The translations under genes were made by a program, and so were the position numbers. Below the pieces are notes generated by a model that saw only the letters and a program-made list of their open reading frames with translations, searched no databases and had not been told where the DNA came from. From Geopsychrobacteraceae bacterium (GTDB taxonomy: Bacteria; Desulfobacterota; Desulfuromonadia; Desulfuromonadales; Geopsychrobacteraceae), in assembly GCA_963668145.2 (NCBI GenBank), contig CAXXJU010000031.1, positions 55,989-119,988 on the forward strand: a DNA stretch of 64,000 bases, given 5' to 3'. This document shows, in pieces, positions 1,352-64,000 of this stretch (positions are counted from its first letter, which is position 1; every line of letters begins with the position of its first letter).

Positions 1352-1747
1352 ATGGATAAAAAGATGCTGGAAGAGGGGAGTGTGTTACAGATCGATTTTG
1401 TCAAGCGTGGCGGGCTGGTGCCGACCGTGGTTCAGGATGCGGCGGATGGTCGCATTCTGATGCTGGCCTATGTCAATGAGCTGGCCTTGACCACGACCCT
1501 GGAAAAAGGAATGGCCACGTTTTGGTCGACCTCGCGCAATGAACTCTGGACCAAGGGCGAAACCTCCGGGGATTTCCTCAAGATTGTCGAGATCCTCACC
1601 GATTGTGATCAGGATGCCCTGGTTTACCGGGTCGCCCCGCAAGGCGGTGGCGCTTGCCACACCAAAGATCCGGTCAGCGGGAAAACGCGGCCGAGTTGTT
1701 TTTACCGCAGCCTCGATCTGACCACAAAAGAGTTGAAATCGGTGTAA
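1352..1747 (+). CDS. hisI: Phosphoribosyl-AMP cyclohydrolase
   Basis: GLVPTVVQD, LWTKGETSG, DCDQDAL, GACHT and SCFYR motifs. AGGAG RBS upstream. Confidence 0.95.
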   Translation: MDKKMLEEGSVLQIDFVKRGGLVPTVVQDAADGRILMLAYVNELALTTTLEKGMATFWSTSRNELWTKGETSGDFLKIVEILTDCDQDALVYRVAPQGGGACHTKDPVSGKTRPSCFYRSLDLTTKELKSV

Positions 1748-1888
1748 GCGCCAGTTTCTGCACCCTCATTGATTTTGTTATACCCCAGAAAAACAGCAGA
1801 GCCCTCCCCGACGATTGTCGGCAGGAGGGCTCTGCTGTTTTTGTTACTGCGGTCCAGGCAGACAACACCCGGCCGGTTCAGAAATCGA

Positions 1889-3487
1889 TTAACCCAAGGA
1901 CAACAGAATATAACCGACGGCGCCGGCGATTACCCCGTAGATGACCATGGGGATGGCCGTCCGCTTGAGAATATAACCTTCCGAGTTCTTTAAGCCCAAC
2001 ACTGAGCAGACCGCGACGATATTGTGAATACAGGTCATATTGCCCATGCCGCCGCCGACCGACTGCATGGCCAGAACGGTAATCTTATTGAGCCCAAGCT
2101 GGTTGGCAATGGAGGCCTGGATGCCGCCGAAGGTCAGGTTGGAAACCGTATTGGAGCCGGAGAAAAATGCACCCAGCGCCCCAAGGTAAGCGGCCAGGAA
2201 CGACCATGCCCCACCGAACACGTCTGCGAAAGCGGTCCCGATAATGATGGTGTTGGCTTTAACTTCAGGGGTCCCGAGCATCAGCAGCTTGACGAAAACC
2301 AGCGCTCCGAGCAAGGCCAGGGTGGGGTTTCTCATCTGGCTGATGGACTCGGAAGACACCCGCTGAATCACCTCACCTTTAGCCTGAAAGACACAGAAGG
2401 CGACCAGGGAAATGAAGATGAACGGGATCAGGAAAGGAATGTACAGGCTGGCGAACGAAAAGTTGACCCCGGTTCCGAAGATACCGCTGACATTGATCAC
2501 CAGGGCCCGGCTGACATCCAGATCCCCGAAGGAACCGAGGCCGGCGTGGAACATCGGTGCGTTGCTTTTCAGCAGAGCATTGATACCGATGGGTTTGATC
2601 CGGGTGATAAGAAGCATGGCGACCGTTCCCCAGAGCGGGAAGGAGGCCTTGAAGATTTTGCCGAAGGGGATAGCACTGTGCGGTGCGCCGACTCCGTCTT
2701 CCTTGCACAGACCGTAACCTTTGACGGCGAAGAAGATCGAGGCAACGGTACCGATTGCTCCGGCAACAACCGACGGAAACTCATAGTTGACCTGAGCTGA
2801 GACATAGTAGGGAATGATCGTTGCGAAAATGCTCAGATAGACAAAGCCGAGGTTGCGTTTTACCATTCTCCAGTTCAGAGCGAAGGTCAGGGCGATTACC
2901 GGAATAATCAATGCTGCGACCCCGTGAATCAAGGCGGCCTGTTGACCAACGGCCAGCAATTCCGGATCGGTCAGGTTGGCGCCTTTGCCGAGGCCGAACC
3001 AGCCGGGGGTACCGACCGCTCCAAAGTGGACCGGAACCGAGTTCATGATCAGGCAGAGAATCGCAACCCGGACCGGTTTGAAGCCGAGGCCGACCAGGAT
3101 CGGTGCAGCAATGGCAGCGGGGGTGCCGAATCCGGAAGCGCCTTCAATGAGGAAGGCAAAAGCCCAGCCGATGATCATGGCCTGGGCAACCTGGTTGGTG
3201 GTGATACCGTTAAGCCAGGTCCGGATGGTGTCCATCGCGCCGGTATATTCCATGGTTTTGAAGAGGAAGATGGCGCCGAACACGATGGAAATCGGCACCC
3301 AGGCCGTCAACAGACCATTGACCACTGTTGCGTTGACGAGGTTGGCATCAATGTCAAAATAAACCAGTTTGACAACGTACAGGATCAAGGCGACCAGGGG
3401 GAGAGCCTGAAACGAAGGCATACTGCTTTTTTTTGTCATCAGCCAGATTAGCAAAATAATCGGGAACAGGGAAATCGCGGTTGCCAT
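1889..3487 (-). CDS. lctP: L-lactate permease
   Basis: 532-aa hydrophobic protein with EGASGFGTPAAIAAP and GAFFSGSNTVSNLTFG motifs. Confidence 0.93.
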   Translation of the reverse strand: MATAISLFPIILLIWLMTKKSSMPSFQALPLVALILYVVKLVYFDIDANLVNATVVNGLLTAWVPISIVFGAIFLFKTMEYTGAMDTIRTWLNGITTNQVAQAMIIGWAFAFLIEGASGFGTPAAIAAPILVGLGFKPVRVAILCLIMNSVPVHFGAVGTPGWFGLGKGANLTDPELLAVGQQAALIHGVAALIIPVIALTFALNWRMVKRNLGFVYLSIFATIIPYYVSAQVNYEFPSVVAGAIGTVASIFFAVKGYGLCKEDGVGAPHSAIPFGKIFKASFPLWGTVAMLLITRIKPIGINALLKSNAPMFHAGLGSFGDLDVSRALVINVSGIFGTGVNFSFASLYIPFLIPFIFISLVAFCVFQAKGEVIQRVSSESISQMRNPTLALLGALVFVKLLMLGTPEVKANTIIIGTAFADVFGGAWSFLAAYLGALGAFFSGSNTVSNLTFGGIQASIANQLGLNKITVLAMQSVGGGMGNMTCIHNIVAVCSVLGLKNSEGYILKRTAIPMVIYGVIAGAVGYILLSLG

Positions 3488-4155
3488 TAAGTAGCTCCTT
3501 CAAGGTGAAAAAAGGTTTCCTCCGACCGTATTCGACCAACGAAAACGGTTATAGAAACTGAAAACAAGAACGGTTACTTAAAAGAATTCAAAGCTCGCGA
3601 GAAGCCCTGAATTACATTAATTCCTTATTCTTCTTCCGAAGCATATCGGAAAGAGTTCCTCTGTTGCCGCCTGAATCTACACTGGTTTGTTTGGCCACAA
3701 CAGCCATCCGCTTCATGTTGTGCTCTCCGGGAAAGCACGCTTTACAATTTATCTATCAGCTGACCGCTCTGAATGAATTTGTTTGGCGAAATTTGTGACC
3801 TCTTACGTTGCTGGTGTCCTGTGGGGTTAGTTCTGTAGTCTAATTCTGGCCCTTTTTACTGCTGTCTACGTTCTGCCTTCTCGGCTTGGCTTTGGCCAGG
3901 CCTGCGGCGGCACGCCTTGGCAGCAGAAAAAATGACTCAGAATTTATACAAACAACTCACCGCTCAGGACACTAGACAGATATTTTCACTCAACCCTGAA
4001 GTTACCGCAGGTGGCTTGGTGTCGTGAAAATGAGGAAGAGGGGAAAATCTTTCAAACAGCACTTTGCCGATGCCTGATTTCAACCCCATTCGCGAGGCTT
4101 CCCAAATATTGTTCACTCCAGACCTGGAGACCAAAAGCCCTTTTAAATCGTTAGA

Positions 4156-4388
4156 AATTGGTCTGACCTGCCATACTTGAAAAACAAAATACCTTATCGC
4201 ACTGGTAAAATAAAATACCATTACTGAGCTGGGGATTTTTTACACGAAAGCGAATTTTTTTGCTAGTAGAAAATGGATTGACCATTTTTTTTATTATAAC
4301 TATTTGATATAATTAAATAATCATAAAAGCTTGACAATTTCCTGGATAAAATCATATTTTATAGACCAGCATAGTGGTAAGACCAATT
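4156..4388. promoter_or_regulatory. FadR/GntR-family (LldR/LutR/PdhR-like) operator sites and a candidate sigma70 promoter between lctP and the dehydrogenase operon
   Basis: AATTGGTCTGACC (4156-4168), AATGGATTGACCATT (~4272-4286) and TAGTGGTAAGACCAATT (4372-4388) resemble AATTGGTnnnACCAATT. TTGACA at 4331 has TATTTT 18 bp downstream. Confidence 0.6.
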
Positions 4389-4527
4389 TATTTATCGCTC
4401 TGGTTTTCCGGGCGTTTTTTTGCAGGTTTTTCCTTGTTGTCGCGAATAGCGTTTGCGCTGAAGAAGGCCGTACACGCGAGGACCTAACAATGTTCGATTC
4501 ACTATTTCGAGTCGACGGGGTTAGAGA

Positions 4528-4716
4528 ATGAAGCGAGAGCAAAAGTTAGCTGTTGCTATGGCAGCAGTGACGGTATTGATTCAGAATCAAGAAAAACAGG
4601 CTGTCTTGCATCAAGGCCGACATACTCAGCTATGGAGACGCTCTGGTCGCCTGCTGGCGATGGAGCAATGCCAGCTGATGCAACGGCTGCCATGGGGAAT
4701 AGGCAACGGCAGATAA
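4528..4716 (+). CDS. Small protein resembling the short subunits found beside acyl-CoA carboxyltransferases (AxAxAAV...LWxxSGR pattern)
   Basis: KLAVAMAAV...LWRRSGRLLAM...LMQR. Its start overlaps (ATGA) the stop of a 13-codon ORF at 4490-4531 that has a GAGGA RBS. Confidence 0.45.
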   Translation: MKREQKLAVAMAAVTVLIQNQEKQAVLHQGRHTQLWRRSGRLLAMEQCQLMQRLPWGIGNGR

Positions 4717-4853
4717 TCCCTCCCATATTCGTTTGGCCGGGTTTGTCGTGGTAATGTGCGGCGCGACCGATTTTAGGGGGATCGCTGTAGTTTTTTGTTG
4801 GTAGCGGGTGTCATCCGAGCCCGGTTTTACCGGGACAATCGGAACACCATTGG

Positions 4854-4901
4854 CAGGTTGTTGAAAAATAGCCTGTCGAGCCCATGGCTGGGCAATCAAA
4901 A
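4854..4901 (+). repeat. Isolated left end of a CAGGYTGTYGAAAAA-type MITE
   Basis: CAGGTTGTTGAAAAATAGCCTGTCGAGCCCATG aligns with CAGGCTGTCGAAAAACAGTCTGTCGAGCCTATG at 53120. No right end found. Confidence 0.55.
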
Positions 4902-5063
4902 GCCATGAGTTAGAGAGGATTTCCAGCACAATCATGCTGTGGTCAGAGCGGGCACAGCATTAAACATAAGGCCGTCAAACAGGTTTCATCTTCGGTTTCT
5001 ACTCGCCATTCACGCAAAATTATTTGCAAAATACGATAGGTTATCGACAGAAAGGGGTTTGGG

Positions 5064-6440
5064 ATGATTGCGAAAGATGTGTTGGCAAAGTTCAAAGGAA
5101 TTGTCGGCGAGGAGGATTATTGGGATCAGCCGACCGACCTGGTGCTGTACAGTTTTGATTCTTCGGTCGAAAATCCGGCCCTACCTGATGTTGTCGTGCG
5201 TCCGGAAAGCACGGACGAAGTTGCCGCTATCTGCCGGCTCTGTAGCGATCATGATATTCCCCTGATTACCCGCGGTTCCGGGACTAACCTGGCCGGTTCA
5301 ACCATCCCCGTCGCCGGCGGCTGTGTGCTGCTGATGACTAAAATGAATAAGATTCTTGAAATTAATACAGATGACATGTATGCGGTGGTGCAGCCGGGGG
5401 TGATTACCCTGGATTTTGCAACCGCAGTGCAGGAAGCCGGGTTGTTTTATCCGCCCGATCCGGGCTCGCAGAAAATGTCCACCATCGGCGGCAATGTGGC
5501 TGAAAATGCCGGTGGTCTGCGCGGGCTTAAATACGGCGTCACCAAAGATTATGTGATGGGCGTGACCTTTTGCGACATGGCCGGGAACATCGTCAAGGCC
5601 GGGGGGAAGACGGTCAAACTCTGTACCGGGTTCAACCTGACCGGGCTGATGTCACAATCCGAAGGCCAGCTGGGGGTGATGACCGAGTGTATCCTCAAGC
5701 TGGTGCCGCCCACTAAGGCCCACAAAGCGATGCTGGTCTCCTTTAAGGACATCATTGATGCCGGCAATACGGTGTCCGGGATCATTCGTGGCCATGTGCT
5801 TCCCGCGACCATGGAGCTGATGGACAATTTCACCATTCGCACCGTCCATGAAGCCACCGGCGTACCGTTGCCGACGGATGCTGCGGCGTTGCTGCTGATC
5901 GAAGTCGACGGCCATCCCGCCGTGGTCGAGGAAGAGTATGCCATCGTGCAGAAAGTCTGCGCGGCGAATAACGGCGAGATCAAACTTGCTGCTACCGCTG
6001 AGGAGCGGGAAGCACTTTGGGAAGGGCGGCGTAAAGCCTTATCGTCATTGGCCCGCCTGCGTCCAACCCTGGTGCTGGAAGACACCACGGTGCCGCGGAC
6101 CAAAATCCCCGATTTTCTCATGGCTCTGGATGAGATCAAGAACAAGTACAAGCTCGATATCGGTACCTTCGGTCACGCCGGGGACGGCAACCTGCATCCG
6201 ACCATTCTGTGTGACAAGCGCGATGCCGAAGAGATGCAACGGGTTCATGCCGCGGTCGCTGATATGTTTGCCGCGGCGCTCCGCCTGGACGGCACCTGTT
6301 CGGGCGAGCACGGCATCGGTCTGGCCAAGCAGCGTTTCATGGTTGATGAAGTCGGTGAAGGGACCATCAATTACATGAAATCCATCAAGCGTGGGGTCGA
6401 CCCGAAGAATTTGTTGAATCCGCACAAGCAGTCCATTTAA
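5064..6440 (+). CDS. glcD: FAD-linked oxidoreductase, GlcD / D-lactate dehydrogenase family
   Basis: RGSGTNLAG, PPDPGS, STIGGNVAENAGGLRGLKYGVT, GHAGDGNLHP and GEHGIG motifs. Confidence 0.9.
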   Translation: MIAKDVLAKFKGIVGEEDYWDQPTDLVLYSFDSSVENPALPDVVVRPESTDEVAAICRLCSDHDIPLITRGSGTNLAGSTIPVAGGCVLLMTKMNKILEINTDDMYAVVQPGVITLDFATAVQEAGLFYPPDPGSQKMSTIGGNVAENAGGLRGLKYGVTKDYVMGVTFCDMAGNIVKAGGKTVKLCTGFNLTGLMSQSEGQLGVMTECILKLVPPTKAHKAMLVSFKDIIDAGNTVSGIIRGHVLPATMELMDNFTIRTVHEATGVPLPTDAAALLLIEVDGHPAVVEEEYAIVQKVCAANNGEIKLAATAEEREALWEGRRKALSSLARLRPTLVLEDTTVPRTKIPDFLMALDEIKNKYKLDIGTFGHAGDGNLHPTILCDKRDAEEMQRVHAAVADMFAAALRLDGTCSGEHGIGLAKQRFMVDEVGEGTINYMKSIKRGVDPKNLLNPHKQSI

Positions 6441-6452
6441 GGGGATCGAGCC

Positions 6453-7748
6453 ATGAATCGTGATGCGGTAGCAAAATGTGTCGAAGAGCTGAAGGAGCTG
6501 GAGGAGCTGCTGATCCAGTGCAGTCGCTGTGGGACTTGCCAGTCAGTCTGTCCGCTGTACAAGAAGGACTGGCAGGAATCTGCGGTTGCCCGCGGCAAGA
6601 TGTATCTCATTGAAGCTCTCTACGAAGGGAAGCTAGATAAAGCCGAGGAAATCTTCAAATATATCGATTATTGTCTGCTTTGCGGACGCTGTAAAAAGAA
6701 CTGCCCCTCCGGAGTGGCCACCGATCAGATCTTCCTGAAGGCCAAGGGGATTCTGCGGCAGGTGAAGAAGATGCCGGCCTGGCAGAAATTAGCCCTGAAG
6801 ATCGCCATGGGTAAGCCTCAGTTCCTGGCGGCCATGAGTCCGCTGTTTCATATCGGTCTGCGTTTGGGAACCCGCAAAGTTGATAACGGAGTTTTCAAGC
6901 CCTACGGCCTCTACAGCCCGTTTATCGGCGATATGACCAAGCGGCATGTGGTGGACATGCCGAGCAAGGCCCTGACCAGCCTCTACGGTGGCTTCAATCA
7001 GGCGGAAAATGAAAAACACCGGGTCATCTTCTACCCCGGCTGTGCAACCACGCTGATTTACGTGCACTGGGGCGTGGCCATCGTTGAAACCCTGCTCCAT
7101 TACGGGGTGTCGGTTTATGTTCCAGAGACCAACAAATGCTGCGGGATTCCTTCGGCAACCATGGGCGAAATGGGCATCTATCGCGATCAGGTCAACAGCA
7201 ATTTCGATTACTTCGATTCGATCAGCGATGCCGACACCGTGTTGATGTGTTGCCCGACCTGTGAATACGGACTGGGCACTATGGGTGAGCAGGAAACCGG
7301 CCGTTCCGGCGGTAAAAAAGTCATGGATGTGGTGCTCTATCTGGCCGAGGTGTTGAAAGTCAAATTGCCGGAAAAAATACCCTTGGTCGGCGGTTCTTCC
7401 CTGCATGTCCCCTGTCATTACAAAACGGGGAAAGAGGGGGTCCTGCGTGACTTCATCCGGTCTAACTTCGACACCGATTTCCAGGAGCTCAAAAACCAGA
7501 GCTGCTGCGGGTTTGGCGGGACTTTCTCGATGAAGAATTATGCCCATACCAAGCAGATCGGCAAGTTGAAGGCCGAGGAAATCAAGCAGCGCGGTTTCGC
7601 CAACCTGTTCACCGCCTGCCCCGGCTGCGCGATGAACCTGACCGACGCCAACCTGACCGAAGGCAATCGGCTGCAGACCACGCACCCGGTGGTGGAGATT
7701 TACGAGCGCTCGATTAAGCCGGCGCAAAAGGCCAGGAAAAAAGCTTAG
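6453..7748 (+). CDS. glcF: Fe-S protein, GlcF family (partner of the FAD subunit)
   Basis: Two CxxCxxCxxxC clusters (CSRCGTCQSVC, CLLCGRCKKNC) and two CCG domains. Confidence 0.88.
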   Translation: MNRDAVAKCVEELKELEELLIQCSRCGTCQSVCPLYKKDWQESAVARGKMYLIEALYEGKLDKAEEIFKYIDYCLLCGRCKKNCPSGVATDQIFLKAKGILRQVKKMPAWQKLALKIAMGKPQFLAAMSPLFHIGLRLGTRKVDNGVFKPYGLYSPFIGDMTKRHVVDMPSKALTSLYGGFNQAENEKHRVIFYPGCATTLIYVHWGVAIVETLLHYGVSVYVPETNKCCGIPSATMGEMGIYRDQVNSNFDYFDSISDADTVLMCCPTCEYGLGTMGEQETGRSGGKKVMDVVLYLAEVLKVKLPEKIPLVGGSSLHVPCHYKTGKEGVLRDFIRSNFDTDFQELKNQSCCGFGGTFSMKNYAHTKQIGKLKAEEIKQRGFANLFTACPGCAMNLTDANLTEGNRLQTTHPVVEIYERSIKPAQKARKKA

Positions 7749-7784
7749 CTCGTTTCCATCCGGAAACTCCGGATGGAAACGAGC
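7748..7784. repeat. Hairpin made of two fused GTTTCCATCCGGAAAC-family termini (minimal MITE derivative, possible terminator)
   Basis: GCTCGTTTCCATCCGGAAACTCCGGATGGAAACGAGC immediately after the glcF stop. Confidence 0.7.
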
Positions 7785-7829
7785 CATCGGCAACCAGCCT
7801 GTTGGCCTTCATCTGGCAATAACCATCAT

Positions 7830-7875
7830 CCGGGTTCGGCGGGGAGGAAGCTTCCCGCCGAACCCGGTACTTTTT
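7830..7875 (+). terminator. Probable rho-independent terminator
   Basis: CCGGGTTCGGCGG ... CCGCCGAACCCGG stem followed by TACTTTTT. Confidence 0.65.
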
Positions 7876-8024
7876 CCCTCTTCTTTACTCTCCTCATGTC
7901 GTGCTCCTGCGCAAGACCACGGCCCTGTAATTCTCCCCTGGCTTTGGGGAACAGAAAAAAACGTTCCACTCTGCTAAAATAAACCATCATGAACGTTCAC
8001 CAGCGACATTGACGGGGAGGATCT

Positions 8025-8444
8025 ATGGCGGAGACCATGACAGGAGCATGTCTGTGCGGGGCAGTGCAATATCAATTGAATCAGCCGGTCAAGGCGGTGG
8101 CCAACTGTCATTGCAATACCTGCAAGAAAATATCCGGGGCGGCATTTCAGACCGTGGTCATTGTTGACCGCGATGCCTTTGAGATCACGGCCGGGAAAGA
8201 GACCCTCAGCAGCTACCAGATGACCGAGAATGCTCGCAAACATTTCTGTCGCAACTGTGGCTCGGCCGTCTATGTCCTGCATAAGAAATTCCCGGCCAGT
8301 TGCCTGCTACAGCTCGGCTCCTTGAGCGACCCGACAGCCGTGCAACCAACCATCAACGTTTTCTGCGAAACGATGCTGCCCTGGGTCAAAGATATTACGG
8401 CACTTCCCTCCTTCGACCAGCGGCCGGAAAAGGGGAACGCCTAA
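8025..8444 (+). CDS. GFA / CENP-V family Zn-binding protein
   Basis: GACLCGAVQY, CHCNTCKK and FCRNCGS motifs. Confidence 0.9.
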   Translation: MAETMTGACLCGAVQYQLNQPVKAVANCHCNTCKKISGAAFQTVVIVDRDAFEITAGKETLSSYQMTENARKHFCRNCGSAVYVLHKKFPASCLLQLGSLSDPTAVQPTINVFCETMLPWVKDITALPSFDQRPEKGNA

Positions 8445-8584
8445 CAGGCTGTTGAAAAACTATCTGCGTTGCAATGACTGCGTTAAAAATAGCCTCAAAA
8501 TGCTCATTTACTGAATGTAAACTGTGCTTCTTCGGCAATTTTTGCCTTGTACTTGCTGCCTCGAAAACGTTTTTCAACACCCTG
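8445..8584. mobile_element. 140-bp MITE with 16-bp terminal inverted repeats and a CTAA target duplication
   Basis: CAGGCTGTTGAAAAAC (8445-8460) and GTTTTTCAACACCCTG (8569-8584) match 15/16. CTAA flanks both sides (8441-8444, 8585-8588). Confidence 0.85.
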
Positions 8585-8607
8585 CTAAGTGGACGCAGGC
8601 CTGCCGT

Positions 8608-8994
8608 TCAGCAGCCGCAGCCACAGTTGTGGCAAACCTTGCGGTGGGCGTCTTCGGGTTGAATGGTTTCCGGGGCAAAGGCCAACCTGCTGACGCCTTT
8701 GCGAATGTCGGCGAGCAGCTCACAGTCTGTGCTGGCGCCGATGATGTGCCCCAGGCATGGGGTGCCGCTGCCCGGTTCGGATGAGCGCAGGCGCACGGCA
8801 TTCAACAGGTCACCGTAGCCACGCACATCGACGCCGGTTTCCGCTTCTCCGGCAAAGTTGACACCGACCCCGGCCGGCCTGAATTCCGCGTCCAGTTCGC
8901 TGGCCAGAGCCGCCAGCTCCTCGCTGCGGATGGCGTAGCGCCAGGTGCTGGTAAAGTTTCTGCGATACAGAATAATGGTAATTTCTTTGGTCAT
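8608..8994 (-). CDS. Hypothetical protein with a C-terminal CHNCGCGC metal-binding tail
   Basis: 128-aa ATG ORF with a GGAG-type RBS upstream and a Cys-rich C-terminus. Confidence 0.7.
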   Translation of the reverse strand: MTKEITIILYRRNFTSTWRYAIRSEELAALASELDAEFRPAGVGVNFAGEAETGVDVRGYGDLLNAVRLRSSEPGSGTPCLGHIIGASTDCELLADIRKGVSRLAFAPETIQPEDAHRKVCHNCGCGC

Positions 8995-9061: not shown

Positions 9062-9646
9062 TCATTTGCGTTTGCCCAGGGCCAGACGCGGGAACAGGGT
9101 ACGTTTCGTCAGCGCTGGCAGGTAGGTTTCATTGACAAAGCGCATATCTTCAATGGTGTAGAATGCGTTCGGGTTATATTTTTTGATAATCGCGAGAATC
9201 TTAGCCAGATTTTTCCGCTTGGCGATGGTGAAAATCAGCTTGACCGGGCCTGATTCCCCCAGTGCGTCGACGCTGGTGACCCCGTATCCGGCCTGCCAGA
9301 GAACATTGACCAGTTCATCCGCCTCTTTGCGGGTGATCACCCGGATCAGCATATTGCCGATGGCGATTCTCTCTTCCAGCGCGACTCCGACGTAGTTTCC
9401 GGCGGCAAAGCCCAGCGCAAAGGCGACATAGGTTTGCCAGGAGTTGAGGTTCTGCATAACCTGGGTTACGGCCAGCAACCAGATCAACGACTCGAAAAAG
9501 CCCAGGATTGCAGCAAAGTTTTTCAGCCCCTTGGAAACGAATATAATCCTCAGGGTGCCGATGGAGACATCGATGATCCGCGCCAGAAAGACCAACAGCG
9601 GAAGTATCAGCAGAGGAAAGTACGGGTTATTGGTTAAAAAAGTCAT
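9062..9646 (-). CDS. DUF2179/UPF0316 family membrane protein
   Basis: FLARIIDVSIGTLRII, GFFESLIWL, GFAAGNYVG and YNPNAFYTIEDMR. Start reassigned to MTFLTNN. Confidence 0.88.
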   Translation of the reverse strand: MTFLTNNPYFPLLILPLLVFLARIIDVSIGTLRIIFVSKGLKNFAAILGFFESLIWLLAVTQVMQNLNSWQTYVAFALGFAAGNYVGVALEERIAIGNMLIRVITRKEADELVNVLWQAGYGVTSVDALGESGPVKLIFTIAKRKNLAKILAIIKKYNPNAFYTIEDMRFVNETYLPALTKRTLFPRLALGKRK

Positions 9647-54933: not shown

Positions 54934-55596
54934 TCATTCTTTTTTATCCTGCAACCCGTAAGACGAAATCGTTTTCATGGTGTCGGCGATGTTTTCGTCA
55001 GACAGGATGACCGGGCCGCCGATGAGCAGGGCCTGATAATACTGGCGGCAGAGAGTCTCCAGCTCCTGGGCAAGCCACATGGCTTTTTCCAGACTGGGAC
55101 CGGTCACCAACATGCCATGATTGGCGAGCAGGCAGGCATTCCGGTCTGCTAATGCCTGCAGGGCATAGTCAGAGAGTTCCTTGGTGCCGTAGGTCGCATA
55201 TTCGGAGCAACGGACACTGTCCCCGCCGAAAATGGCCACCATATAATGGGCTGCCGGGATATCGCGGCGGGCCATGGCCAAGGTTGTTGCGTAAATGGAA
55301 TGGGTGTGGACAACCCCATTGACCTCAGGCCGGGCTCTCATGATGTCCAGATGGAAGCGCCACTCGCTGGACGGCTTGAAAGGACCCTCCCAGGTTCCGT
55401 ATTCCCCATCGATCGGCATTGAGCTGATGGATTCCGGCTCCAGGCTGTCATAAGGGATGCCACTGGGGGTAATGAGCATGCGGTTTTCGTAGCGTGCAGA
55501 AATATTGCCCGATGTGCCCTGGTTGAGGCCGGAAGCGTTCATCCACAGTGACTTGCTGATGATCTCGGAGCGAAGCTCTCGTTCAATCGTATTCAT
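54934..55596 (-). CDS. Class II aldolase, FucA (L-fuculose-phosphate aldolase) like
   Basis: GTSGNIS, ITPSG, PSSEWRFH, HTHS and LLANHG motifs. Confidence 0.9.
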   Translation of the reverse strand: MNTIERELRSEIISKSLWMNASGLNQGTSGNISARYENRMLITPSGIPYDSLEPESISSMPIDGEYGTWEGPFKPSSEWRFHLDIMRARPEVNGVVHTHSIYATTLAMARRDIPAAHYMVAIFGGDSVRCSEYATYGTKELSDYALQALADRNACLLANHGMLVTGPSLEKAMWLAQELETLCRQYYQALLIGGPVILSDENIADTMKTISSYGLQDKKE

Positions 55597-55661
55597 GCCA
55601 TTTTTCCTCTTTTTGCAGACCAGTTGATTTAGTGTTTAACCTGTTTTGCCCTTCCAGCAGA

Positions 55662-56580
55662 TTAGCCTGGCCCGACAGCATCTTCCCTCATACGTGGGGC
55701 TGCGCCGTCTGAATCGCCAGAAAAATCAACATGATAGCTGTGCGGGGAGATTTTCAGGAGCCGCAGCTGTTCGGCCAGGCCGGTGCGCATTTCGCTGGCA
55801 AGCATCCAGGCGTCCCCGGGGGAATCCGCCCAGGCCGCAAGCCAACAGCGGAACCCCTCCTTTTCCATTCCCATGACCCAGAAACTCGGATCCTCGTGGG
55901 GGGCAAAATGAGGAGATTCACTTGCAATCCGGATCGCATGGGCTTTGACTTCGGCAATGTCAGTATCCGGAGCAACCCAGAATTCGACATAAGTCCAGCG
56001 AAAGTTGTCCCCCAGGGTCAGGCTGATGAATTCCTTGGAAAGCATATCCGCGTTGGGGGATCACGTACCGCCGCCAGTCCCAGCCTTTGACGATGGTATA
56101 AATTGGCGTGATGTCTTCGATGGTTCCGTAATGCTTGTCGATATCGACGGTATCGCCGATGCGCAAGTGGCGGGAAAAGGTAATCACGATACCGGCAATC
56201 AGGTTCTCAATGAACGGACGGGCCGCGATTCCGAGGACAACACCGAAAGAAGCGACAAACATAGACAACAGGGTCGCGGGGATTCTGTCGAGGAAGGAGA
56301 TGCCGATTGCAAAAACGACCAGCAGAGCAATGAGCATGGTGATGGCATGACGGATGATACTGAAGCGGAAATTGACACTTCGGGCCCTGGCTTTCTGAGC
56401 CTCCCTCAGCGGTTTGTCGATGGGAGAACTGGTCGGCACCGCATGCATGTAATCATCTTGCTTGATGGCGGTATGACGTTTTTTCTCAACCTTTTTCAGC
56501 AACCAGCGCAACAGGACAAGCAGGCCGAGACCGGCAAAAACCAGAATAACGATATTGAGTAATTGACTATATGACATCAT
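55662..56580 (-). CDS. MscS-family mechanosensitive channel protein (frameshifted as sequenced in the G5 run at 56055-56059)
   Basis: GIAARPFIENLIAG, LRIGDTV and GTIEDI..YT..WDWRRYVIP. Removing one base joins NADMLSKEF. Confidence 0.82.
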
Positions 56581-56702
56581 AGCCCCTCGAACCTCTGTGG
56601 GTGCGTCAATGACACCGGACGTTGGTTGACCTTCAAAAGCACGATTTCACTGAAATTTTAACAGTTCTTGCAGGAGATACTCCGAACGCTGTCAACTTAT
56701 GA

Positions 56703-57395
56703 TTATGTTGATGGTTTCTGATTCAAAAGAATATCCCTGGCAGTATTGATTTTCGCGGCCAGAAAATCCGATCCCCCACTATCAGGATGAACCCCTTTCA
56801 TAAGGCGCCTCCAGGCTTGATGGATTTCCTCCTGTGATGCGTTTTCTTCAAGACCAAGTATCTGGTAGGCCTCCTGCCTGGTCATATTGTCAAAACCTGA
56901 TTGATCCTTCCGGTTCCCGGATGCATCAGAATCAGCCTGATCGTGCCAATCGGGGTAGTATCGGTCAAGAAAAGATTCAAGCAAGGAAAGACTTTCCGTG
57001 TCGGAACGAAAATCAGAGTAGAGCGACAGCAGCTCTTCCTCACTCAGCGAAGACAAACGAGCCCCCTGTAATCGACCAGTCAATATAGTGCCGTCCATTT
57101 CTCCAGTATCGTGATCAAGTTCCATCTCAAGGTTTGCCGAACGGACAGTCGATTTTTGTCCCTCAGCGGAGCGGAGCGGTCGTTTCGAACGATTTCTCCG
57201 CCACCATGAAACGCCCAGAAGAATCAAGGGGACTCCAATGGCTCCACGTCGTAAAAGAGTCAGCAATACCCCTATCACGATGACAATGACCGGCCCGGCA
57301 GTCGACAAAACAGCAGCCCTTTGTTTAGCCGGTAGGGCCATCAACTGGTAAATGCCGATGACCGCAAATAACATCAAGAAAAGATACAGAATCAT
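56703..57395 (-). CDS. Membrane-anchored protein with a C-terminal J domain
   Basis: N-terminal TM segments, MELDHDTGEMDG, and a C-terminal J domain (EAYQILGL...HPDSGGS..LAAKIN). Confidence 0.88.
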   Translation of the reverse strand: MILYLFLMLFAVIGIYQLMALPAKQRAAVLSTAGPVIVIVIGVLLTLLRRGAIGVPLILLGVSWWRRNRSKRPLRSAEGQKSTVRSANLEMELDHDTGEMDGTILTGRLQGARLSSLSEEELLSLYSDFRSDTESLSLLESFLDRYYPDWHDQADSDASGNRKDQSGFDNMTRQEAYQILGLEENASQEEIHQAWRRLMKGVHPDSGGSDFLAAKINTARDILLNQKPST

Positions 57396-57424
57396 TTATC
57401 TTCCAGGAAGAGGGGGATGAAAAA

Positions 57425-58138
57425 TCATTTTGTCATCTGATCCAGGAGCAAGCGGGCCTCTCGTTTGCCACTGTTTGAAAGTGCTTTCAACCCGCCGCGC
57501 GCATATACGGCAATCGCACCAAGCAGTTCGACGAGCTCTTTTGCCGAATCAGGCCCGAGGTGAAAATAAGCCCCGTTGGAAAGCCGAGCCATTTCTCGAA
57601 ATCCCTTTTCGACCCTGGTATCCTGGCCATCCTGAAAGAAAAAGCAGCGGACTCCTTTTAGCCCGAGCTCTCCCGCTTTCTGGCAGAGCACGTCGATATC
57701 CTCCTCGATGGAATCTCCGATGAAAACCAGTGCAGCGACTTTTGCCTTGGTTGTTTCTCGATTGGCGTGATCAAGGACCCTGGAGATCTGTGTCTGTCCA
57801 CCCAGGCACTGAATGCCGAGCATCAAATCGCGCAGCGCGGCAGCATTAATGACCCATTTCGAAGCTCGACATTCATCGATACCTCGAAAATACACCAGTT
57901 GAACCGACAACCCGCCTGCCTTGCCGACCGCATCGAACATGGAAGCCTGGATAGTGACAGCCTGGTCCCAGGTTGGCTGCCGGCTCATGGTTGCATCCAG
58001 AGAGAAGATCAATCTTCCGCTTTGAGCGACCGTTGCCTTAGCGGCGGCCTTGAGAAAAGCAGCTATCTCGCTGGAGGACGACTTCTCCCGAAGTGCGGGA
58101 GACTTTTTTTCAGTGGTCGCCAGTATTTTCTTTTTCAT
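57425..58138 (-). CDS. Stand-alone VWA domain protein
   Basis: LIFSLDATMSR MIDAS-like motif, GQTQI and VFIGD. Confidence 0.85.
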   Translation of the reverse strand: MKKKILATTEKKSPALREKSSSSEIAAFLKAAAKATVAQSGRLIFSLDATMSRQPTWDQAVTIQASMFDAVGKAGGLSVQLVYFRGIDECRASKWVINAAALRDLMLGIQCLGGQTQISRVLDHANRETTKAKVAALVFIGDSIEEDIDVLCQKAGELGLKGVRCFFFQDGQDTRVEKGFREMARLSNGAYFHLGPDSAKELVELLGAIAVYARGGLKALSNSGKREARLLLDQMTK

Positions 58139-58453
58139 AGATTGTTCCCTCTGACAAGATGGGCTTATTTTTTCCTAAGGTCATAAAAAGATGATGACTT
58201 TGCCGGTCCAAAAAGGTGTCATGATCTTATCATATTTCAGGTTTTTTCTACGACATCAACGCTTCAGGACAACTGGTGGAGGCACTACAAAATTTCCTTG
58301 ATGTCGAGTGGATGATGGTTTAGTGTGATCAAACATTGTTATTTTCGAAAGGATGTTCGTTTTAACGGCATCCTGTAAATGTAAAGTCGTGGCGCCTGTT
58401 ATTAAAGGAACTGCGGCTTTTTTTTGTTGGAAAAACAGACTGCAGGGGGGGGC

Positions 58454-58753
58454 ATGAAACTCATCGCTGAAGCTTTTCTTATCCTGTTCTTTCTTGTCAG
58501 TTTAGTCCCTTCTTCTGTTTTTGCTACAACACAGCAGTGTGTCGATGAAGATGACACTGCAAATGCGGTTCTCTTTGTTGACAAAGAGATGAATAAACCG
58601 ATCGAGATAAAACTCACGGCAATTAACCCGATTTATCAGGTCGATGAAAAACGCGGTTGCTGCTCGCATCATGGTGGTGTTGCTTACTGCGGTTCCAGTG
58701 GTTATTGGATTTGTAATGATGGGACGAGGAGTCCGACCTGCCGTTGTGATTGA
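58454..58753 (+). CDS. Small secreted Cys-rich protein
   Basis: Signal peptide and C-terminal RGCCSHHGGVAYC...ICNDGTRSPTCRC. Confidence 0.75.
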   Translation: MKLIAEAFLILFFLVSLVPSSVFATTQQCVDEDDTANAVLFVDKEMNKPIEIKLTAINPIYQVDEKRGCCSHHGGVAYCGSSGYWICNDGTRSPTCRCD

Positions 58754-59039
58754 GATTGTATATTTGCCTACTAAGAAGCTTCGGTTTTTTGTGGCCTACG
58801 GATTAGAAGTCCGTTGCTTCCCAGGTGAGGATCTATTGGCTACGTAAGCTTTCCTATCAAGTAGACAGTTAAAAGTAGAATTTTCAGCGTTCTTTGACGG
58901 CGAATTCACGCAGGAAAAAAATATGGGAAGTGTTTGAATGCATAAGTAAGAAAGCGGAAGCCTCCAACTGGCGGACGGCTCATAATGAGCGGCAGGGTCG
59001 AATAAATCGCCCCGAGTCAGACCCAGAGAGGAGGCTTCC

Positions 59040-60068
59040 ATGGAAAGTATTCACTACATCGGCTTAGACGTCCACAAGAAAACCATCGCTTTCTGTATTA
59101 AAACCCTGAGCGGAAAGAACGTTCGACAAGGGGTTGTGAACGCAGAACGAAACGCGCTACGACATTGGCTGGCGGAATTGTCTTGTCCCTGGATGGGGGC
59201 CATGGAGGCAACGCTGTTTACCGGCTGGATTTACGATTTTCTCAAGCCCCACGCCGTTGAGTTAAAAGTCGCGCACCCGGAAATGCTCAAAGCGATTACC
59301 GCGGCCAAAAAGAAGAACGACCGGGCTGATGCAGAGAAGTTGGCAGATCTTCTGCGCGTCAATCTTCTGCCGGAATGCCACATGATGTCCGAAGAGCTAC
59401 GGGAATTGCGGCGCATTCTTCGCTATCGGAACATGGTCGTTCGCACGGCAGTGCAGATGAAGAACAAAATGGCCGGGTTGATGATGGAGGTCGGCGCGAC
59501 CTACGACAAAAAACGGTTGTATGGGCGTAAATATTTCAACCAACTGATGGGGCGGGTAGACGATGTGCCCGATTCGGTCAAAGAGCTGTTACAACTGAGC
59601 CGCAGCAATCTTGAGCTGTTTACCGCCATCCAGAAGAAACTGGTTCGGACTCTTCGAGAGAATGAGCTGATTCGACGGAGGGTTGAGCTTTTGATGAGTA
59701 TTGCCGGGGTTGGAGAGATCATGGCTTTGACCTGGGTGTTGGAGATCGGTGATCCAACCCGCTTTCACTCCAGTCGGGAAGCCATCAGCTATTGCGGACT
59801 CTGCAGTGCACAACGGGAATCGGCCGGGAAAGATCAACGAGGGCCACTCTCCAAAAAACGCAACAAGCACCTGCAGACCATGCTCATTGAAGCCGCTAAG
59901 CTAGCCCCACGATGGAATATTCAACTGGCGGAATTGCATGAAAAAGAGTTGACCAAAGGCAATCGCAACCGAGCCACTTTAGCTGTTGCACGCAAGCTGG
60001 TTGAATATCTGTTGGCCGTTGATCGACGTGGTACTGCTTTTGAGGAGAGACAATCTCAGGTCGCCTGA
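59040..60068 (+). CDS. IS110-family transposase/recombinase (DEDD RuvC-like)
   Basis: YIGLDVHKK, GAMEAT, KKNDRADAEKLA, SIAGVG, YCGL..RESAG and RNRATLAVARKL motifs. Confidence 0.96.
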   Translation: MESIHYIGLDVHKKTIAFCIKTLSGKNVRQGVVNAERNALRHWLAELSCPWMGAMEATLFTGWIYDFLKPHAVELKVAHPEMLKAITAAKKKNDRADAEKLADLLRVNLLPECHMMSEELRELRRILRYRNMVVRTAVQMKNKMAGLMMEVGATYDKKRLYGRKYFNQLMGRVDDVPDSVKELLQLSRSNLELFTAIQKKLVRTLRENELIRRRVELLMSIAGVGEIMALTWVLEIGDPTRFHSSREAISYCGLCSAQRESAGKDQRGPLSKKRNKHLQTMLIEAAKLAPRWNIQLAELHEKELTKGNRNRATLAVARKLVEYLLAVDRRGTAFEERQSQVA

Positions 60069-60369
60069 GTTGAAGAAAAACAGATAATCTTTACATCAAA
60101 CGATCTTTCCGCCGGGCCTTGCGGACTAGGGACTACGTGAGCTTCGCTGCACGACATTGGGAGTGTTTCAAGGCTGGCGGGTTGGCCCAAACTCAATCTT
60201 CTGTGAAGGGATGATGTCCCGGAGACAGCACATGGATGTCTGGTCGCTGATTTAGCGGACCAAAAGAACAGATCAAAAAGATCGAAGGATGCAAGGGACA
60301 AGGAAAAACAGAGTCGCCACCGGGAGTAGGCCCGCGAGGTAAAGGGAAACCTCCGCTTTCCCCTTGACT
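60069..60369 (+). ncRNA. Candidate IS110 bridge/seek RNA in the 3' non-coding end
   Basis: About 300 nt of structured non-coding DNA containing CATGGATGTC (60231-60240, identical to the element's right end) and AGTGTTTCAAGGC (11/13 match to the left flank). Confidence 0.5.
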
Positions 60370-60528
60370 TTACTTATCATGGATGTCCCAGGTTTTCGAA
60401 CAGTTTCAACAATGGGTATCTCAACAATCGTAAATCTGGCCTCTGGAGATCTTGCTCACCAAGAGAAGGCACTCAGCGAGCATTTGGTTCATCTCCCGGA
60501 GTGGAAGCGGCTGGCTGATGGTGCCAAG

Positions 60529-60595
60529 GGCTAACCTCTCATTCCACCGGACCTGCGCGAAAAGCCGCGCAGACCGGTGAATTCAAACGTTATGC
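60529..60595 (+). other. Integron attC recombination site (67 bp)
   Basis: R'' GGCTAAC, 5-bp spacer, L'' ATTCCAC, central hairpin, L' GTGAAT, 6-bp spacer, R' GTTATGC. The extrahelical base is in the canonical position. Confidence 0.9.
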
Positions 60596-60629
60596 ACTCA
60601 GACATCGCTTGTCGTAGAAAGGATACGAA

Positions 60630-61643
60630 ATGAAGATAGATAAGATAATAAGTTTTTTAACCTATCCCGGAAAGCATGCTGAGGAGCAGCCAGAGATTAG
60701 CGGCGCTACGATTCCCAAAAAGGGAAAGCTTTTTAATATGTTGTCAGGGTTATTTGATAGTTCAGAGTCTGATTGCAACATACCGATAATATTCTTGACT
60801 GAAGATGATTCCCAAAATAATTCTGTTAGAGATGAAATTGTTCAGCTAGCTACATCAAAAAGCATCGGTGATGGCAAGATACTGGCTCAAAGATTGCAAC
60901 TTGCCACAACTGAAAAGTCCGGCATGGGTCTGATATTTTTCACAATTGGTAGTGATGGAGCCAACCATAAAATAGTAATTTCTAGATTTCCTGCAGATGA
61001 AGGTATCGTGGCCGAAAGATCCTCAAATACTCTTAAAGTAGAATTTGTAGAAGAAGTATTCTTGAAGAGCGCCTATTCGTATAAGGCAGTTATGTATCAA
61101 TTTCCAATCCCAAATCACGATCTATGGACGGGGTTTGCCGTGGACAAGCAGGTAAATCATGGTGCAAAAGAGGTTGCCGCTTATTGGATAAGTGATTTTC
61201 TTAAGTCAGACTTTCAAACAACTCCGAAGCAAGGCACTAAAAGATTGGCGATGGCATTGCGAGATGCAATATCAAGTTGTCAAGATACAAATATAAAACA
61301 TGAAATTGTATCGAGCGCGAAGCTCGCAAAAAACATTCCAAATAAAGCTATGTCAATTGAGGAGTTTTGCGACCAATTTCATTTGTCCGACGATGCCAAG
61401 GAGCATATTTGTTCTCAAGTTAAACCTGCACGCCTACTAAAGGATAAGTTTGTTTTCGATAGAGGGGAGTTTGATAAACATCTTTCTTACAAAATGGTTG
61501 AACTAGATAATGGAGCTATTCTATCGGCTCAAGCCTCGAAATTTGATGATTGTTTTGAGGCTACCAGTACCGACAACGACAATAACGTCCTATTTGTTAC
61601 CTCTGGCCGAGTAATTGATGAGAAGTTAAGGAGGTCAAAATAG
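60630..61643 (+). CDS. Hypothetical cassette protein, probable distant YejK/NdpA (NA37) nucleoid-associated family
   Basis: 337 aa. By-eye similarity to YejK as I recall it: LAQRLQLATTEKSGMGLIFF, KEVAAYWISDFL..TTPKQGTKRLAMAL, KFVFDRGEF. Confidence 0.55.
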   Translation: MKIDKIISFLTYPGKHAEEQPEISGATIPKKGKLFNMLSGLFDSSESDCNIPIIFLTEDDSQNNSVRDEIVQLATSKSIGDGKILAQRLQLATTEKSGMGLIFFTIGSDGANHKIVISRFPADEGIVAERSSNTLKVEFVEEVFLKSAYSYKAVMYQFPIPNHDLWTGFAVDKQVNHGAKEVAAYWISDFLKSDFQTTPKQGTKRLAMALRDAISSCQDTNIKHEIVSSAKLAKNIPNKAMSIEEFCDQFHLSDDAKEHICSQVKPARLLKDKFVFDRGEFDKHLSYKMVELDNGAILSAQASKFDDCFEATSTDNDNNVLFVTSGRVIDEKLRRSK

Positions 61644-61646
61644 ATA

Positions 61647-62249
61647 ATGGATATCGATGCAGAATATAGGCAGCGATGGGAGCAATACCTTAAGCCTATT
61701 GCTAACAAACTCCAAGAAAAACTTCTGGATGAGCTAAGGGGCGTGCCACGAATCGATAGGATATCTGCAAGAGCTAAAGACCCTATTAGATTCATGAATA
61801 AATCCCAGAAAACTGCAGATGGCAGACCAAAATACGATGATCCTCTAGTTCAAATACAAGATCAAATAGGCGCAAGGGTTATAGTCTTTTATGTCGATGA
61901 CGTTCTAGTTGTAGAAAAAGCGATTGAGGATTACTACAGGCATATCGAAAAGAAAGATTTGGTTCCAGAATCAGATAGTGAATTTGGATATGTAGGGAAG
62001 CATTATGTATTGAAGTTACCAGAAGATGTAATTGAAGACGAAGATGATAAAACCAAGATACCAAAATTTTTTGAACTTCAGATAAAAACGCTTTTTCAGC
62101 ATGCTTGGAGTGAAGCTAATCACGATCTCGGCTACAAGCCAGATCAGGAGCTTACGAGCCATCACCGTAGAAAGCTTGCATTCACAGCTGCTCAAGCTTG
62201 GGGTGCGGATCAAATATTTTCTGAATTGCTGAGAGATTTAGATGCATAA
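61647..62249 (+). CDS. Stand-alone RelA/SpoT-family nucleotidyltransferase (small alarmone synthetase-like)
   Basis: RAKD, IQDQIGARVI, FGYVGKHY and FELQIKTLFQHAWSEANHDLGYK. No hydrolase or regulatory domains. Confidence 0.9.
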   Translation: MDIDAEYRQRWEQYLKPIANKLQEKLLDELRGVPRIDRISARAKDPIRFMNKSQKTADGRPKYDDPLVQIQDQIGARVIVFYVDDVLVVEKAIEDYYRHIEKKDLVPESDSEFGYVGKHYVLKLPEDVIEDEDDKTKIPKFFELQIKTLFQHAWSEANHDLGYKPDQELTSHHRRKLAFTAAQAWGADQIFSELLRDLDA

Positions 62250-62261
62250 TAAGGCGCTGCA
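62244..62261 (+). other. Truncated attC left arm
   Basis: GCATAAT-AAGGC-GCTGCA overlaps the synthetase stop codon. GCATAA(T) is the complement of the upstream R' GTTATGC at 6/7 positions. Confidence 0.55.
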
Positions 62262-62269
62262 AGAAAAAG

Positions 62270-63313
62270 AAAAGGGGTCAAGTCTCGTTTTGACTTTTAA
62301 TTACTGACTGCTATGCTCTGTTCATGTCCAGACCTCTCCGAATAGAATACCCCCGGTGCCTGGTACCATGTCATGAACCGTGGCCGCCGGAAAGAAGATA
62401 TCTTTTTTGATCAGGATGATTTCCAGCTATTCCTGGAGATTCTGAAAGATACCGCGCGCATGTGGAACCTGCGTGTGGCGGCCTATTGTCTGATGTCTAA
62501 TCATTATCATCTTCTGGTACAAACAGCGGGTGGTAATCTCGGGCGTTGCCTGCGGCATCTTAATGGCGTCTATACGCAACGATTTAATCGCACGCACCGA
62601 CTTGATGGGCAGTTGTTTCGAGGTCGCTATAAGGCCGTACTTGTTGAAGATGATGAACATTTATTGCAACTGCTTCGGTATGTCCACCGTAATCCCCTTG
62701 AAGCCAAAATGGCCGAATCGCTTGAAGCATATCCGTGGAGCAGTCATTGTGCGTATCTGCCATCACGAAAGGGTTGGGAGTGGGTATTTAGGGATAAATT
62801 GCTGGCGATGTTTTCATCTTCCCCCAAAGAGGCCTTTGCTGGATATCTTCACTTTGTTGATCAGGACAACACTCCAGAAGTGCAGCATTTTTATTCTCTG
62901 AAAAACCTTCCTTCCATATTTGGGTCAGCAGGGTTTATTGATAGGATTCGCAGCCAGCTTGGTTCGTCACCTCGCTCTAAAGATGTTCCACAATCTGCAA
63001 TACTGTCTGTTGAGTTCACTGATATTGAAGCAGCTGTGTGCCGAGTTTACTGCATAACCAGGGAGCAGCTGCTGACTTCGCGGCGTGGTGAAACGAATCA
63101 ACCGAGAGATTTGGCTATGTATCTATTGCGCAAACATTCACGTAAGACTTTGGCTGAAATAGGGCAATGCTTTGAAATTGCCAATTACAGCACTGTCAGC
63201 AGCGGCATTATCCGAGCGCAGAAAGCGCTAAAAACAGATCATGTTGTGCGTAAGATCTTTGGAGATATGGAACAGTGTCTTCGCAAAAGTCAAAACGAGA
63301 CCTGACCCCTTTT
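62270..63313 (+). mobile_element. HUH (Y1/RAYT-like) transposase element bounded by 29-bp terminal inverted repeats
   Basis: AAAAGGGGTCAAGTCTCGTTTTGACTTTT (62270-62298) and AAAAGTCAAAACGAGACCTGACCCCTTTT (63285-63313) match 28/29. Confidence 0.88.
62324..63305 (+). CDS. Y1/IS200-like HUH transposase with a C-terminal DnaA-like HTH (frameshifted as sequenced in the C5 run at 62350-62354)
   Basis: MSRPLRIEYPGAWYHVMNRG after correction, AYCLMSNHYHLL (HUH), LFRGRYK, YVHRNP and YPWSS. C-terminal PRDLAMYLLRKHS..TLAEIG..F..NYSTVS. Confidence 0.9.
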
Positions 63314-64000
63314 CACGCACTGGCTCAAAGAACGCACCGATATAATGAGCAAAATCGAGGAGTAGTTTTTTTATCTCTGTGCAGACTTTTTCCCTATTGA
63401 TGTCGGAAGAAAATTGGGGGGCGATTATCTCTATTCTACCTGCCGCTGGATGCATATCTGCTCCTGGTTTTGGAACCCCTGTGGCCGTGGACAATTCTTT
63501 ATCGTGGTCCATATATGCAATCAATTTGACTATCCCGTTTTTGTGAAAGTCTCATGGAATTAATTTTGACAATATACTTCTGTCTGGGATGAGTCCGTTT
63601 CCTTTCTTCAACTTGCTAGGATTGCGCAATCCAAGCAAGTTACTTAGTTGTCGATAAAATGAGCAATGATCGTGAAATAATTCTATTGTAGCGCCCCTCT
63701 CGGAAGGGGAATGAAAAAAGGCTTAAAACTTAATTATTAACGATTCTGACAGCTTCGGGAGAAGGGACTGTTAATCGGCATTGAAAATGCCCCCCTGGGG
63801 GTGCGTTCAATATTGACCCGGATAGTTAAATAAATTTTCTCTATTTTGTTGGGCAATTGGCATCATTTTGGTTGCTTCTTGCCCCTCTTATTCGCTAAAT
63901 CGGCAAGGGGCCAGTCAGGATTCAATATGATTCCAATTCCCCCATAACAGGGCGTTGAAATACTAACCGGGCGGCGTCTCATTTTCTGTTTAGGCAGACA

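Follow-up and report, generated by a model that had tools for sequence, protein, structure and literature searches.

A probable imported fragment of an integron cassette array between an IS110-family element and a HUH element in a Geopsychrobacteraceae genome

The stretch of DNA analysed here (the window) comprises 64,000 nucleotides of a Geopsychrobacteraceae bacterium (GenBank assembly GCA_963668145.2, here G000; 5.2 Mb in 60 contigs) and corresponds to positions 55989-119988 of a 164-kb contig (C31). It contains a piece of an integron cassette array, and the results of this work suggest that this piece, at 60397-62265, is very likely an imported array fragment bounded by an IS110-family insertion sequence (IS) and a HUH element, and not the product of a local integrase. 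The segment would have been cut out of a cassette array so as to keep the last 132 nt of one cassette together with its intact attC (attC1, 60529-60595), then the complete two-gene cassette that follows (60590-62250) and 22 nt from the beginning of its own attC (62244-62265). It could have arrived by recombination involving the repeated IS110 and HUH elements, or by horizontal transfer anchored on them. As a whole, the locus is an ordinary and well-known kind of integron debris, which happens to be well documented here.

The sequence at 60529-60595 is a genuine integron attC, as seen in its fold, in two covariance models and in the covariation of its family. Read on the plus strand, the 67-nt site consists of R'' GGCTAAC (60529-60535), the spacer CTCTC, L'' ATT[C]CACCGG (60541-60550), a terminal stem of 7 bp with a 6-nt loop (60553-60572), L' CCGGTGAAT (60574-60582), the spacer TCAAAC and R' GTTATGC (60589-60595). 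This makes an imperfect palindrome with L'' and L' boxes, unpaired central spacers of 5 and 6 nt, and a single extrahelical base bulging on the R''/L'' side after the third L pair (C on the top strand, G on the bottom strand). Each R box departs from its IUPAC consensus (RYYYAAC and GTTRRRY) at one position, with AAC and GTT intact. Its position is that of a cassette boundary, the outer bases of R' being those of the next cassette. Folded as single-stranded DNA, the site reaches -17.6 kcal/mol (z = -4.4), a value equalled by none of 200 shuffles. The bottom strand would be expected to form a hairpin presenting the extrahelical G recognised by integron integrases, and by this modelled fold attC1 appears structurally competent and could still act as a docking or excision partner, given an active IntI.

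Both attC covariance models that score the site were built here. For the first (R1), 11 attCs were taken from behind annotated resistance cassettes in class 1 and class 3 integrons on plasmids. The MAFFT alignment of all 11 was structurally inconsistent, with the right arm one column off in lnu(F), IMP-1 and dfrA1, and for this reason R1 was built from the six consistent sites (aadA1, aadA2, catB3, aac(6')-Ib, blaOXA-1 and OXA-10-like), with R-box and L-box pairs only and with nothing from the present genome. R1 gives attC1 27.4 bits at exactly 60529-60595 on the plus strand (E = 2.8e-4 across 198 kb); an unfiltered search of the window gives it E = 9e-5, and the second-best match there reaches 11.5 bits. 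The whole-genome E of about 0.007 is an extrapolated value, and these E-values are rough. The second model (R2), made from 12 attC1 homologues of other genomes with the window excluded, gives 85 bits on the plus strand (E = 2.4e-26) and 20.5 bits on the minus strand, which makes it strand-specific; it also matches two attCs in this genome's own arrays. Rfam holds no attC family, and no relevant match to it was found in 57500-64000. Scans by structure only mostly caught a 122-nt repeat family and were replaced by the covariance models and position matrices. The initial annotation had called this site a complete canonical attC and proposed a covariance model as the check; geometry and both models, R1 and R2, agree with it.

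When 60397-60610 was searched as DNA against 400 genomes sampled from the phylum, the attC part alone gave matches. Sites of the attC1 type, 83-92% identical, are found in 16 of these genomes (L142-L158), from many families and classes, and in the loci fetched they lie amid further same-strand attCs, 450-800 nt apart. The 12 homologues align cleanly on the attC structure, with 81.6% of the cells paired vs about 30% for a slid partner; both sides have changed in seven pairs, and none of 500 shuffles reaches the observed covariation score. The compensatory changes are located in L''/L' and the terminal stem. The AAC/GTT pairs are retained in 9-12 of the 12 members and the four outer R-box pairs are mostly unpaired, which is the pattern expected from crossover at G|TT in arrays. 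These results bear on the idea that what was taken for an attC is a fortuitous hairpin, a terminator of transcription or a REP-like (repetitive extragenic palindrome) sequence. A GC-rich hairpin directly after a stop codon, in a genome with other structured repeats (the 122-nt family), would be in line with it, but it has to account for matches to two covariance models, the strand asymmetry, the bulged base, the AAC/GTT boxes, a hairpin without T-run, and homologues that lie within arrays of other attCs, and we regard it as extremely improbable. No second site of the attC1 type was found in this genome. Four of the five attC1-type carriers checked are without any intI, and the type therefore resides mostly in integrase-less clusters. 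As a sequence type, it is unusually conserved across families and classes of the phylum.

The cassette that follows attC1 runs on the plus strand from the crossover point G|TTATGC (60590) to its own R'', at 62250, and holds gene A (60630-61643; 337 aa) and gene B (61647-62249; 200 aa), the latter with the fold of a RelA/SpoT-like small alarmone synthetase. Its ends follow from its relatives: in three metagenome contigs with synthetases 95%, 80% and 75% identical (L059, L078 and L060), GCATAAC lies on the stop codon and is followed by a hairpin ending in GTT, and the cassette can therefore be taken to start at G|TTATGC and to end in its own attC. L078 has GTTATGC as its R' and a 7/7 pairing of the R boxes, with a fold at z = -3.5. 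The attCs of these contigs were recognised by eye, fold and matrices, the class-1 matrices placing each left and right arm between the top 1e-4 and the top 2e-3; RNAalifold on the three was uninformative.

In the window the corresponding sequence is a stump (62244-62265, plus strand), GCATAAT AAGGC GCTGCAAG, in which R'' GCATAAT contains the stop codon of the synthetase, AAGGC is the spacer and L'' reads GCTGCAAGAA. Judging from its sequence, it is a real attC left arm. A left-arm position matrix that had only ten class 1/3 attCs for training ranks its 19-20-mer 66-72 among 10.46 million genome positions; the first 15 nt by themselves place it in the top 3.8e-5, and the spacer with L'' by itself in the top 2.5e-4 for the class-1 matrix and the top 1e-5 for a matrix of this genome's own attCs. 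The arm does not fold by itself (z = +0.5), being cut at 62265/62266 by the HUH element that starts at 62266, and its 22 nt are too short for any covariance model to call. The missing right arm was found neither past 63314 nor beside the other HUH copies, and the cassette, having lost L' and R' of its 3' attC, is no longer excisable. GCATAA is the exact complement of TTATGC in attC1 (6/6), with T as seventh base where an attC needs C. A second left arm over the synthetase stop, with an R'' complementary to the first R' as at two ends of one cassette, had been proposed before; the matrix rank, the six matching bases and the homologous cassettes ending in GCATAAC plus an attC of their own bear out both points. 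Two other left-arm matrix matches on the contig (C31:131448 and 143109) were rejected, since they are without right arm.

Up to GCATAA, the window is about 97% identical to L059, and there the homology ends (62244-62265 against L059:1408-1430), the seventh base of R'' being T in the window and C in the relatives. The break falls at AA^C, which is the cleavage position of a top-strand attC, and the arm that follows GCATAA is most similar to a site on contig C45 of this genome (AAAAC GCTGCAACGG). A different history can be written around this break, with attC1 belonging to the A-B cassette and a unit of attC1 minus its first six bases, A-B and GCATAA having integrated via the top strand by crossover at AA^C of R''; the left arm of the target attC would now be seen as GGCTAA...T AAGGC GCTGCAAG. 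Joining GCATAA to C-CTCTC-ATTCC... does give an attC with 7/7 R''/R' pairing (GCATAAC/GTTATGC), AA|C is the exact point at which the homology to the 95% relative ends, with attC-like but non-orthologous sequence beyond, and an attC1-type site also lies before a 56%-identical A-B pair in a further metagenome contig (L086). However, the attC1 type is common in the phylum, which makes the L086 coincidence a weak one, and the 95, 80 and 75% relatives carry a different attC of their own downstream of B with the same R'' start, as the canonical arrangement would have it. Recombination of attC top strands is, besides, orders of magnitude rarer. We therefore think such an exchange unlikely, and keep to a cassette that lies between attC1 and the stump of its own site.

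To the left, the array fragment adjoins the IS110-family element (58917-60396, plus strand; transposase 59040-60068), whose transposase matches Pfam DEDD_Tnp_IS110 and Transposase_20 and NCBIfam transpos_IS110 (188 bits), and whose ends are set by 98-99.7% identical copies on contigs C43, C20 and C45; the four copies share no attC-like target. Between the IS and attC1 there are 132 nt (60397-60528) with 45 codons of a plus-strand open frame that starts within the right end of the IS110 and stops at TAA 60532-60534, inside R''. The initial annotation had R'' overlapping the stop of an open reading frame (ORF) disrupted by the IS110. An open frame does end at the TAA in R'', but its disruption is unsupported: removal of the IS joins the flanks into no more than 48-69 codons, of which the sole ATG leaves 40, no Pfam family matches, and the DNA to the left and right of the IS is not collinear in relatives. 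The 132 nt have no homologue in the 400 sampled genomes, the 5' boundary expected of the upstream cassette (GTTAGCC) was not found on the plus strand, and the segment is most readily taken for what is left of the 3' part of a lost cassette.

The right border is the HUH element (62266-63313, plus strand), which is Y1/RAYT-like with a DnaA-C helix-turn-helix (Pfam Y1_Tnp and Bac_DnaA_C). Its 30-nt terminal inverted repeats (62269-62298 and 63285-63314) are 97% complementary, and its ends are defined by other copies, one of them at C31:137868-138913. At 62324-62360 the transposase gene of the window copy has a run of C5 vs C4 in this second copy and in the congener G004, which breaks the frame after codon 10, and the window copy is probably inactive.

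The left flank of the locus is 91-97% identical in two congeners, G004 and G006. In G004 (a 97%-identical congener), homology to the window at 54936-58934 is followed (L139, G004:C1:422500-436500, 2100-6261) by an internally deleted IS110, 2.9 kb of DNA of its own encoding one 914-aa DEAD-box helicase protein, and a HUH copy, past which comes the DNA that follows the second HUH copy in G000. In G006 (L140, G006:C1:194000-204500, 655-8994), a full IS110 at the same site is followed by 5.2 kb of its own DNA, with a 182-aa ORF, a 1029-aa SMC/AAA protein and an IS4, and then by a HUH element. The three inserts share nothing with one another, no attC was found in those of G004 and G006 with R1, an insensitive model, and the segment 60397-62265 is absent from all five congeners searched. 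The fragment thus sits in a variable slot bordered by the right end of the IS110 and the left end of the HUH element, where the congeners hold different cargo, and it was not made by a local integron.

The same conclusion is reached from the integrase side. No intI (TIGR02249) passes the cut-off in the window, in keeping with what had been noted of its 64 kb, nor on its 164-kb contig. The only match over cut-off in the genome is on contig C14 (301.7 bits, split over two frames), where intI lies at 1493-2516 on the minus strand (L017) with its catalytic C-terminus split off by a one-base frameshift in a GTTTTTGG run (T5/G2). The gene is intact and in a single frame in congeners, as is a 93%-identical homologue, and its nearest homologues, of about 333 aa, bear names from Thermodesulfobacteriota and Desulfuromonas. 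Beyond intI, C14 carries attCs at 3352-3447, from 8079, at 8600-8660 and at 9410-9475, and there are further arrays on C45 (three sites) and C22; R1 locates sites of 37 bits, 900 nt away from the intI of this genome, and of 34 bits, on C45. The search for intI and more attCs beyond the 64 kb, which the initial annotation had recommended, therefore leads to other contigs, with none more found over C31:36000-164488 using R1.

The proposal that the locus is a chromosomal integron being eroded in place by IS110 and HUH elements has to be seen in this light. Integron integrases are present in 6/6 genomes of the genus and 19/24 of the family, sedentary integrons occur in the lineage, intI of this genome is a pseudogene, and IS elements adjoin the sites, all of which would suit a resident integron that decayed at this spot and lost its integrase. 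What speaks against it is that intI and its array are on another contig, that in G004 the syntenic locus (0.42 Mb) is 3.0 Mb from intI (3.43 Mb), that the congeners have neither an attC nor A-B at the locus, and that the attC1 type occurs nowhere else in the genome. Decay in place is, in our view, highly unlikely. Of the earlier proposal there remains that the attCs bound a true cassette with no intI nearby, truncated by the IS110 on the left and by the HUH element on the right.

Classification requires a similar correction. IntegronFinder 2 reports attC clusters that have no integron integrase (CALINs) from two attCs up, and single sites can be true positives (PMC9024848); the CALIN concept goes back to Cury et al. 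2016 (cited through Neron et al. 2022, PMC9024848). With no intI adjoining an array, the locus is not a complete integron, and with one complete site and a 22-nt stump it stays below the default threshold of two clustered attCs, so that the CALIN label given to it at first does not apply. It is a single attC site lacking an integron-integrase (SALIN), a term coined by Loot et al. (bioRxiv 10.1101/2022.09.11.507474), plus a stump: the one significant site over C31:36000-164488 has neither an intI nor a further att site nearby. Two origins have been proposed for such loci, namely array remnants moved by transposable elements vs de novo insertion at attG (bioRxiv 10.1101/2022.09.11.507474). One complete attC with no integrase nearby, in a lineage this rich in integron integrases, is what the insertion of a single cassette by an integrase at an attG would leave, and attG insertions are documented and common (bioRxiv 10.1101/2022.09.11.507474). 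Yet such an insertion puts the attC downstream of its gene, and here the complete attC is upstream of the cassette, which has a separate R'' and left arm, giving two consecutive sites; the ends of the fragment match mobile-element ends and not a GTT target, and the upstream cassette is without 5' boundary. We consider a SALIN formed de novo at this spot to be very unlikely. What fits an origin as array remnant is the succession of two sites, with the cassette downstream of the complete one, and the coincidence of both fragment ends with mobile-element termini.

Several points weigh against the imported-fragment interpretation or soften its supports. The reciprocal halves (the right arm of the second attC and the 5' part of the upstream cassette) were not found beside other copies of the IS110 or the HUH element, so that the route of arrival can only be inferred. 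The arm after GCATAA, though attC-like, has no homology with the site downstream of B in the 95% relative, and R1 gives the relatives' downstream attC 7.3 bits and does not recognise it. R1 is indeed narrow: it scores the true sites of IMP-1 and arr-3 at 18 and 15 bits and misses those of lnu(F), dfrA1 and dfrA14, which makes the statements that no other attC is nearby and that the cargo of G004 and G006 holds none weaker than they sound. In addition, when R1 was run on the whole genome, 150 of 1120 prefiltered candidates were scored, without attC1 among those listed, and the genome-wide background was extrapolated for this reason.

As for the cargo, gene B matches PF04607 (E = 2.8e-12) and the PADLOC candidate PDC-S33, and in the PDB it matches small alarmone synthetases of the RelQ/YjbM type (E about 1e-8). 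Gene A matched no family in a Pfam search, and the database label of its relatives is "nucleoid-associated protein". No sigma-70-like promoter was found before gene A. Both genes are >90% identical to adjacent genes of the gammaproteobacterium Saccharophagus degradans and to copies in several metagenome contigs, an identity that would indicate recent long-range transfer. The Saccharophagus degradans records are those with WP_303491046 and WP_303491049, and the metagenome contigs with members of these protein clusters include ones of 25.7 kb and 14.5 kb. The pair is conserved as a unit across phyla, mostly without detectable attCs; among the 22 genome and 80 metagenome loci of A-B relatives scanned for an attC alongside, only L086 scored with R1. 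A-B is probably a toxin-antitoxin or anti-phage pair. In a metagenome-assembled genome of the Anaerolineales (L055, OY760067.1, about 5830-7760), the 3' end of a tRNA (gttcgagtccctcagggcgcgctgttcaagccgacgag...) is directly repeated on either side of A-B, which suggests a minimal island integrated in a tRNA gene.

The IS110/HUH locus looks like a cargo-swapping hotspot, possibly for defence. More tentatively, and with some doubt on our part, one could think of a cargo-swapping slot with a different candidate defence module in each of three congeners, in which the cassette pair was captured from a distant lineage and the hybrid stump could record a top-strand integrase exchange; were this true, it would be a natural example of cassettes leaving integrons via other mobile elements.

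A few more observations concern the repeated elements around the slot. In G004, the 13 nt after the right end of the IS110 (L139:2329-2341, CCAAACGTTTGAT) are in the top 2e-5 of the class-1 attC right-arm matrix, and 60397-60409 of the window (CGAACAGTTTCAA) is identical to them at 9/13 positions; these 13-mers may be the trace of an older attC at the target of the IS. The IS110 copy at C45:9072-12972 holds a 2.4-kb insertion with a 501-aa ORF, 1.3 kb past the distal end of the C45 array. Just left of the window's IS110, 58454-58753 encodes a small secreted Cys-rich protein of 99 aa (...CCSHHGGVAYCGSSGYWICNDGTRSPTCRCD) that belongs to no family and is conserved in G004 and G006. The HUH element of G006 has a 109-nt tandem duplication of its left end. 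The 122-nt palindromic repeat (CGGAAACGG...CGTTTCCA) occurs in at least 12 places in G000 (e.g., C31:39352-39473, C20:224162-224283 and C31:145866-145990), and one copy directly adjoins the right end of a partial HUH element.

Ordinary as it is, the locus is of use on three counts. A lone attC far from any integrase is shown to be genuine by independent models, and the way in which the fragment was truncated bears on the debate on the origin of SALINs and small CALINs, as remnants of integrons or as fresh insertions. Furthermore, a two-gene module of RelA/SpoT type moves between phyla as an integron cassette, and one variable locus between IS110 and HUH elements holds different candidate defence genes in sister species.

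Compared to known systems, the locus shares with SALINs and CALINs the presence of attCs and cassettes with no intI in reach, and its borders suggest an array rearrangement mediated by transposable elements, an origin that has been proposed for CALINs. It differs from a SALIN of the attG type in that the complete site precedes the cassette and a truncated second site follows it. An IS1111-attC group of IS110-family elements was reportedly described by Tetu and Holmes in 2008, and here too an IS110-family element lies beside an attC, with another copy 1.3 kb from the C45 array, although the end of the IS (60396) is 132 nt upstream of the intact attC1 and not inside it. Sedentary chromosomal integrons are stores of defence and toxin-antitoxin cassettes (bioRxiv 10.1101/2024.07.02.601686). 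The compact two-gene cassette, with a PDC-S33 candidate of small-alarmone-synthetase fold as its second gene, resembles these, but lies outside an integron and without an obvious promoter, with a function that is predicted only. Finally, attC1 is built like the attCs of class 1/3 integrons (aadA1, aadA2, catB3, aac(6')-Ib and blaOXA-1 type), with a 7-nt R'', a 5-nt spacer, 3 bp followed by a bulged C and a stem, the spacer TCAAAC and a 7-nt R', the latter (GTTATGC) being that found after catB3 in L020; it differs from them in belonging to its own sequence family, the closest members of which are the 83-92% identical sites of Thermodesulfobacteriota.

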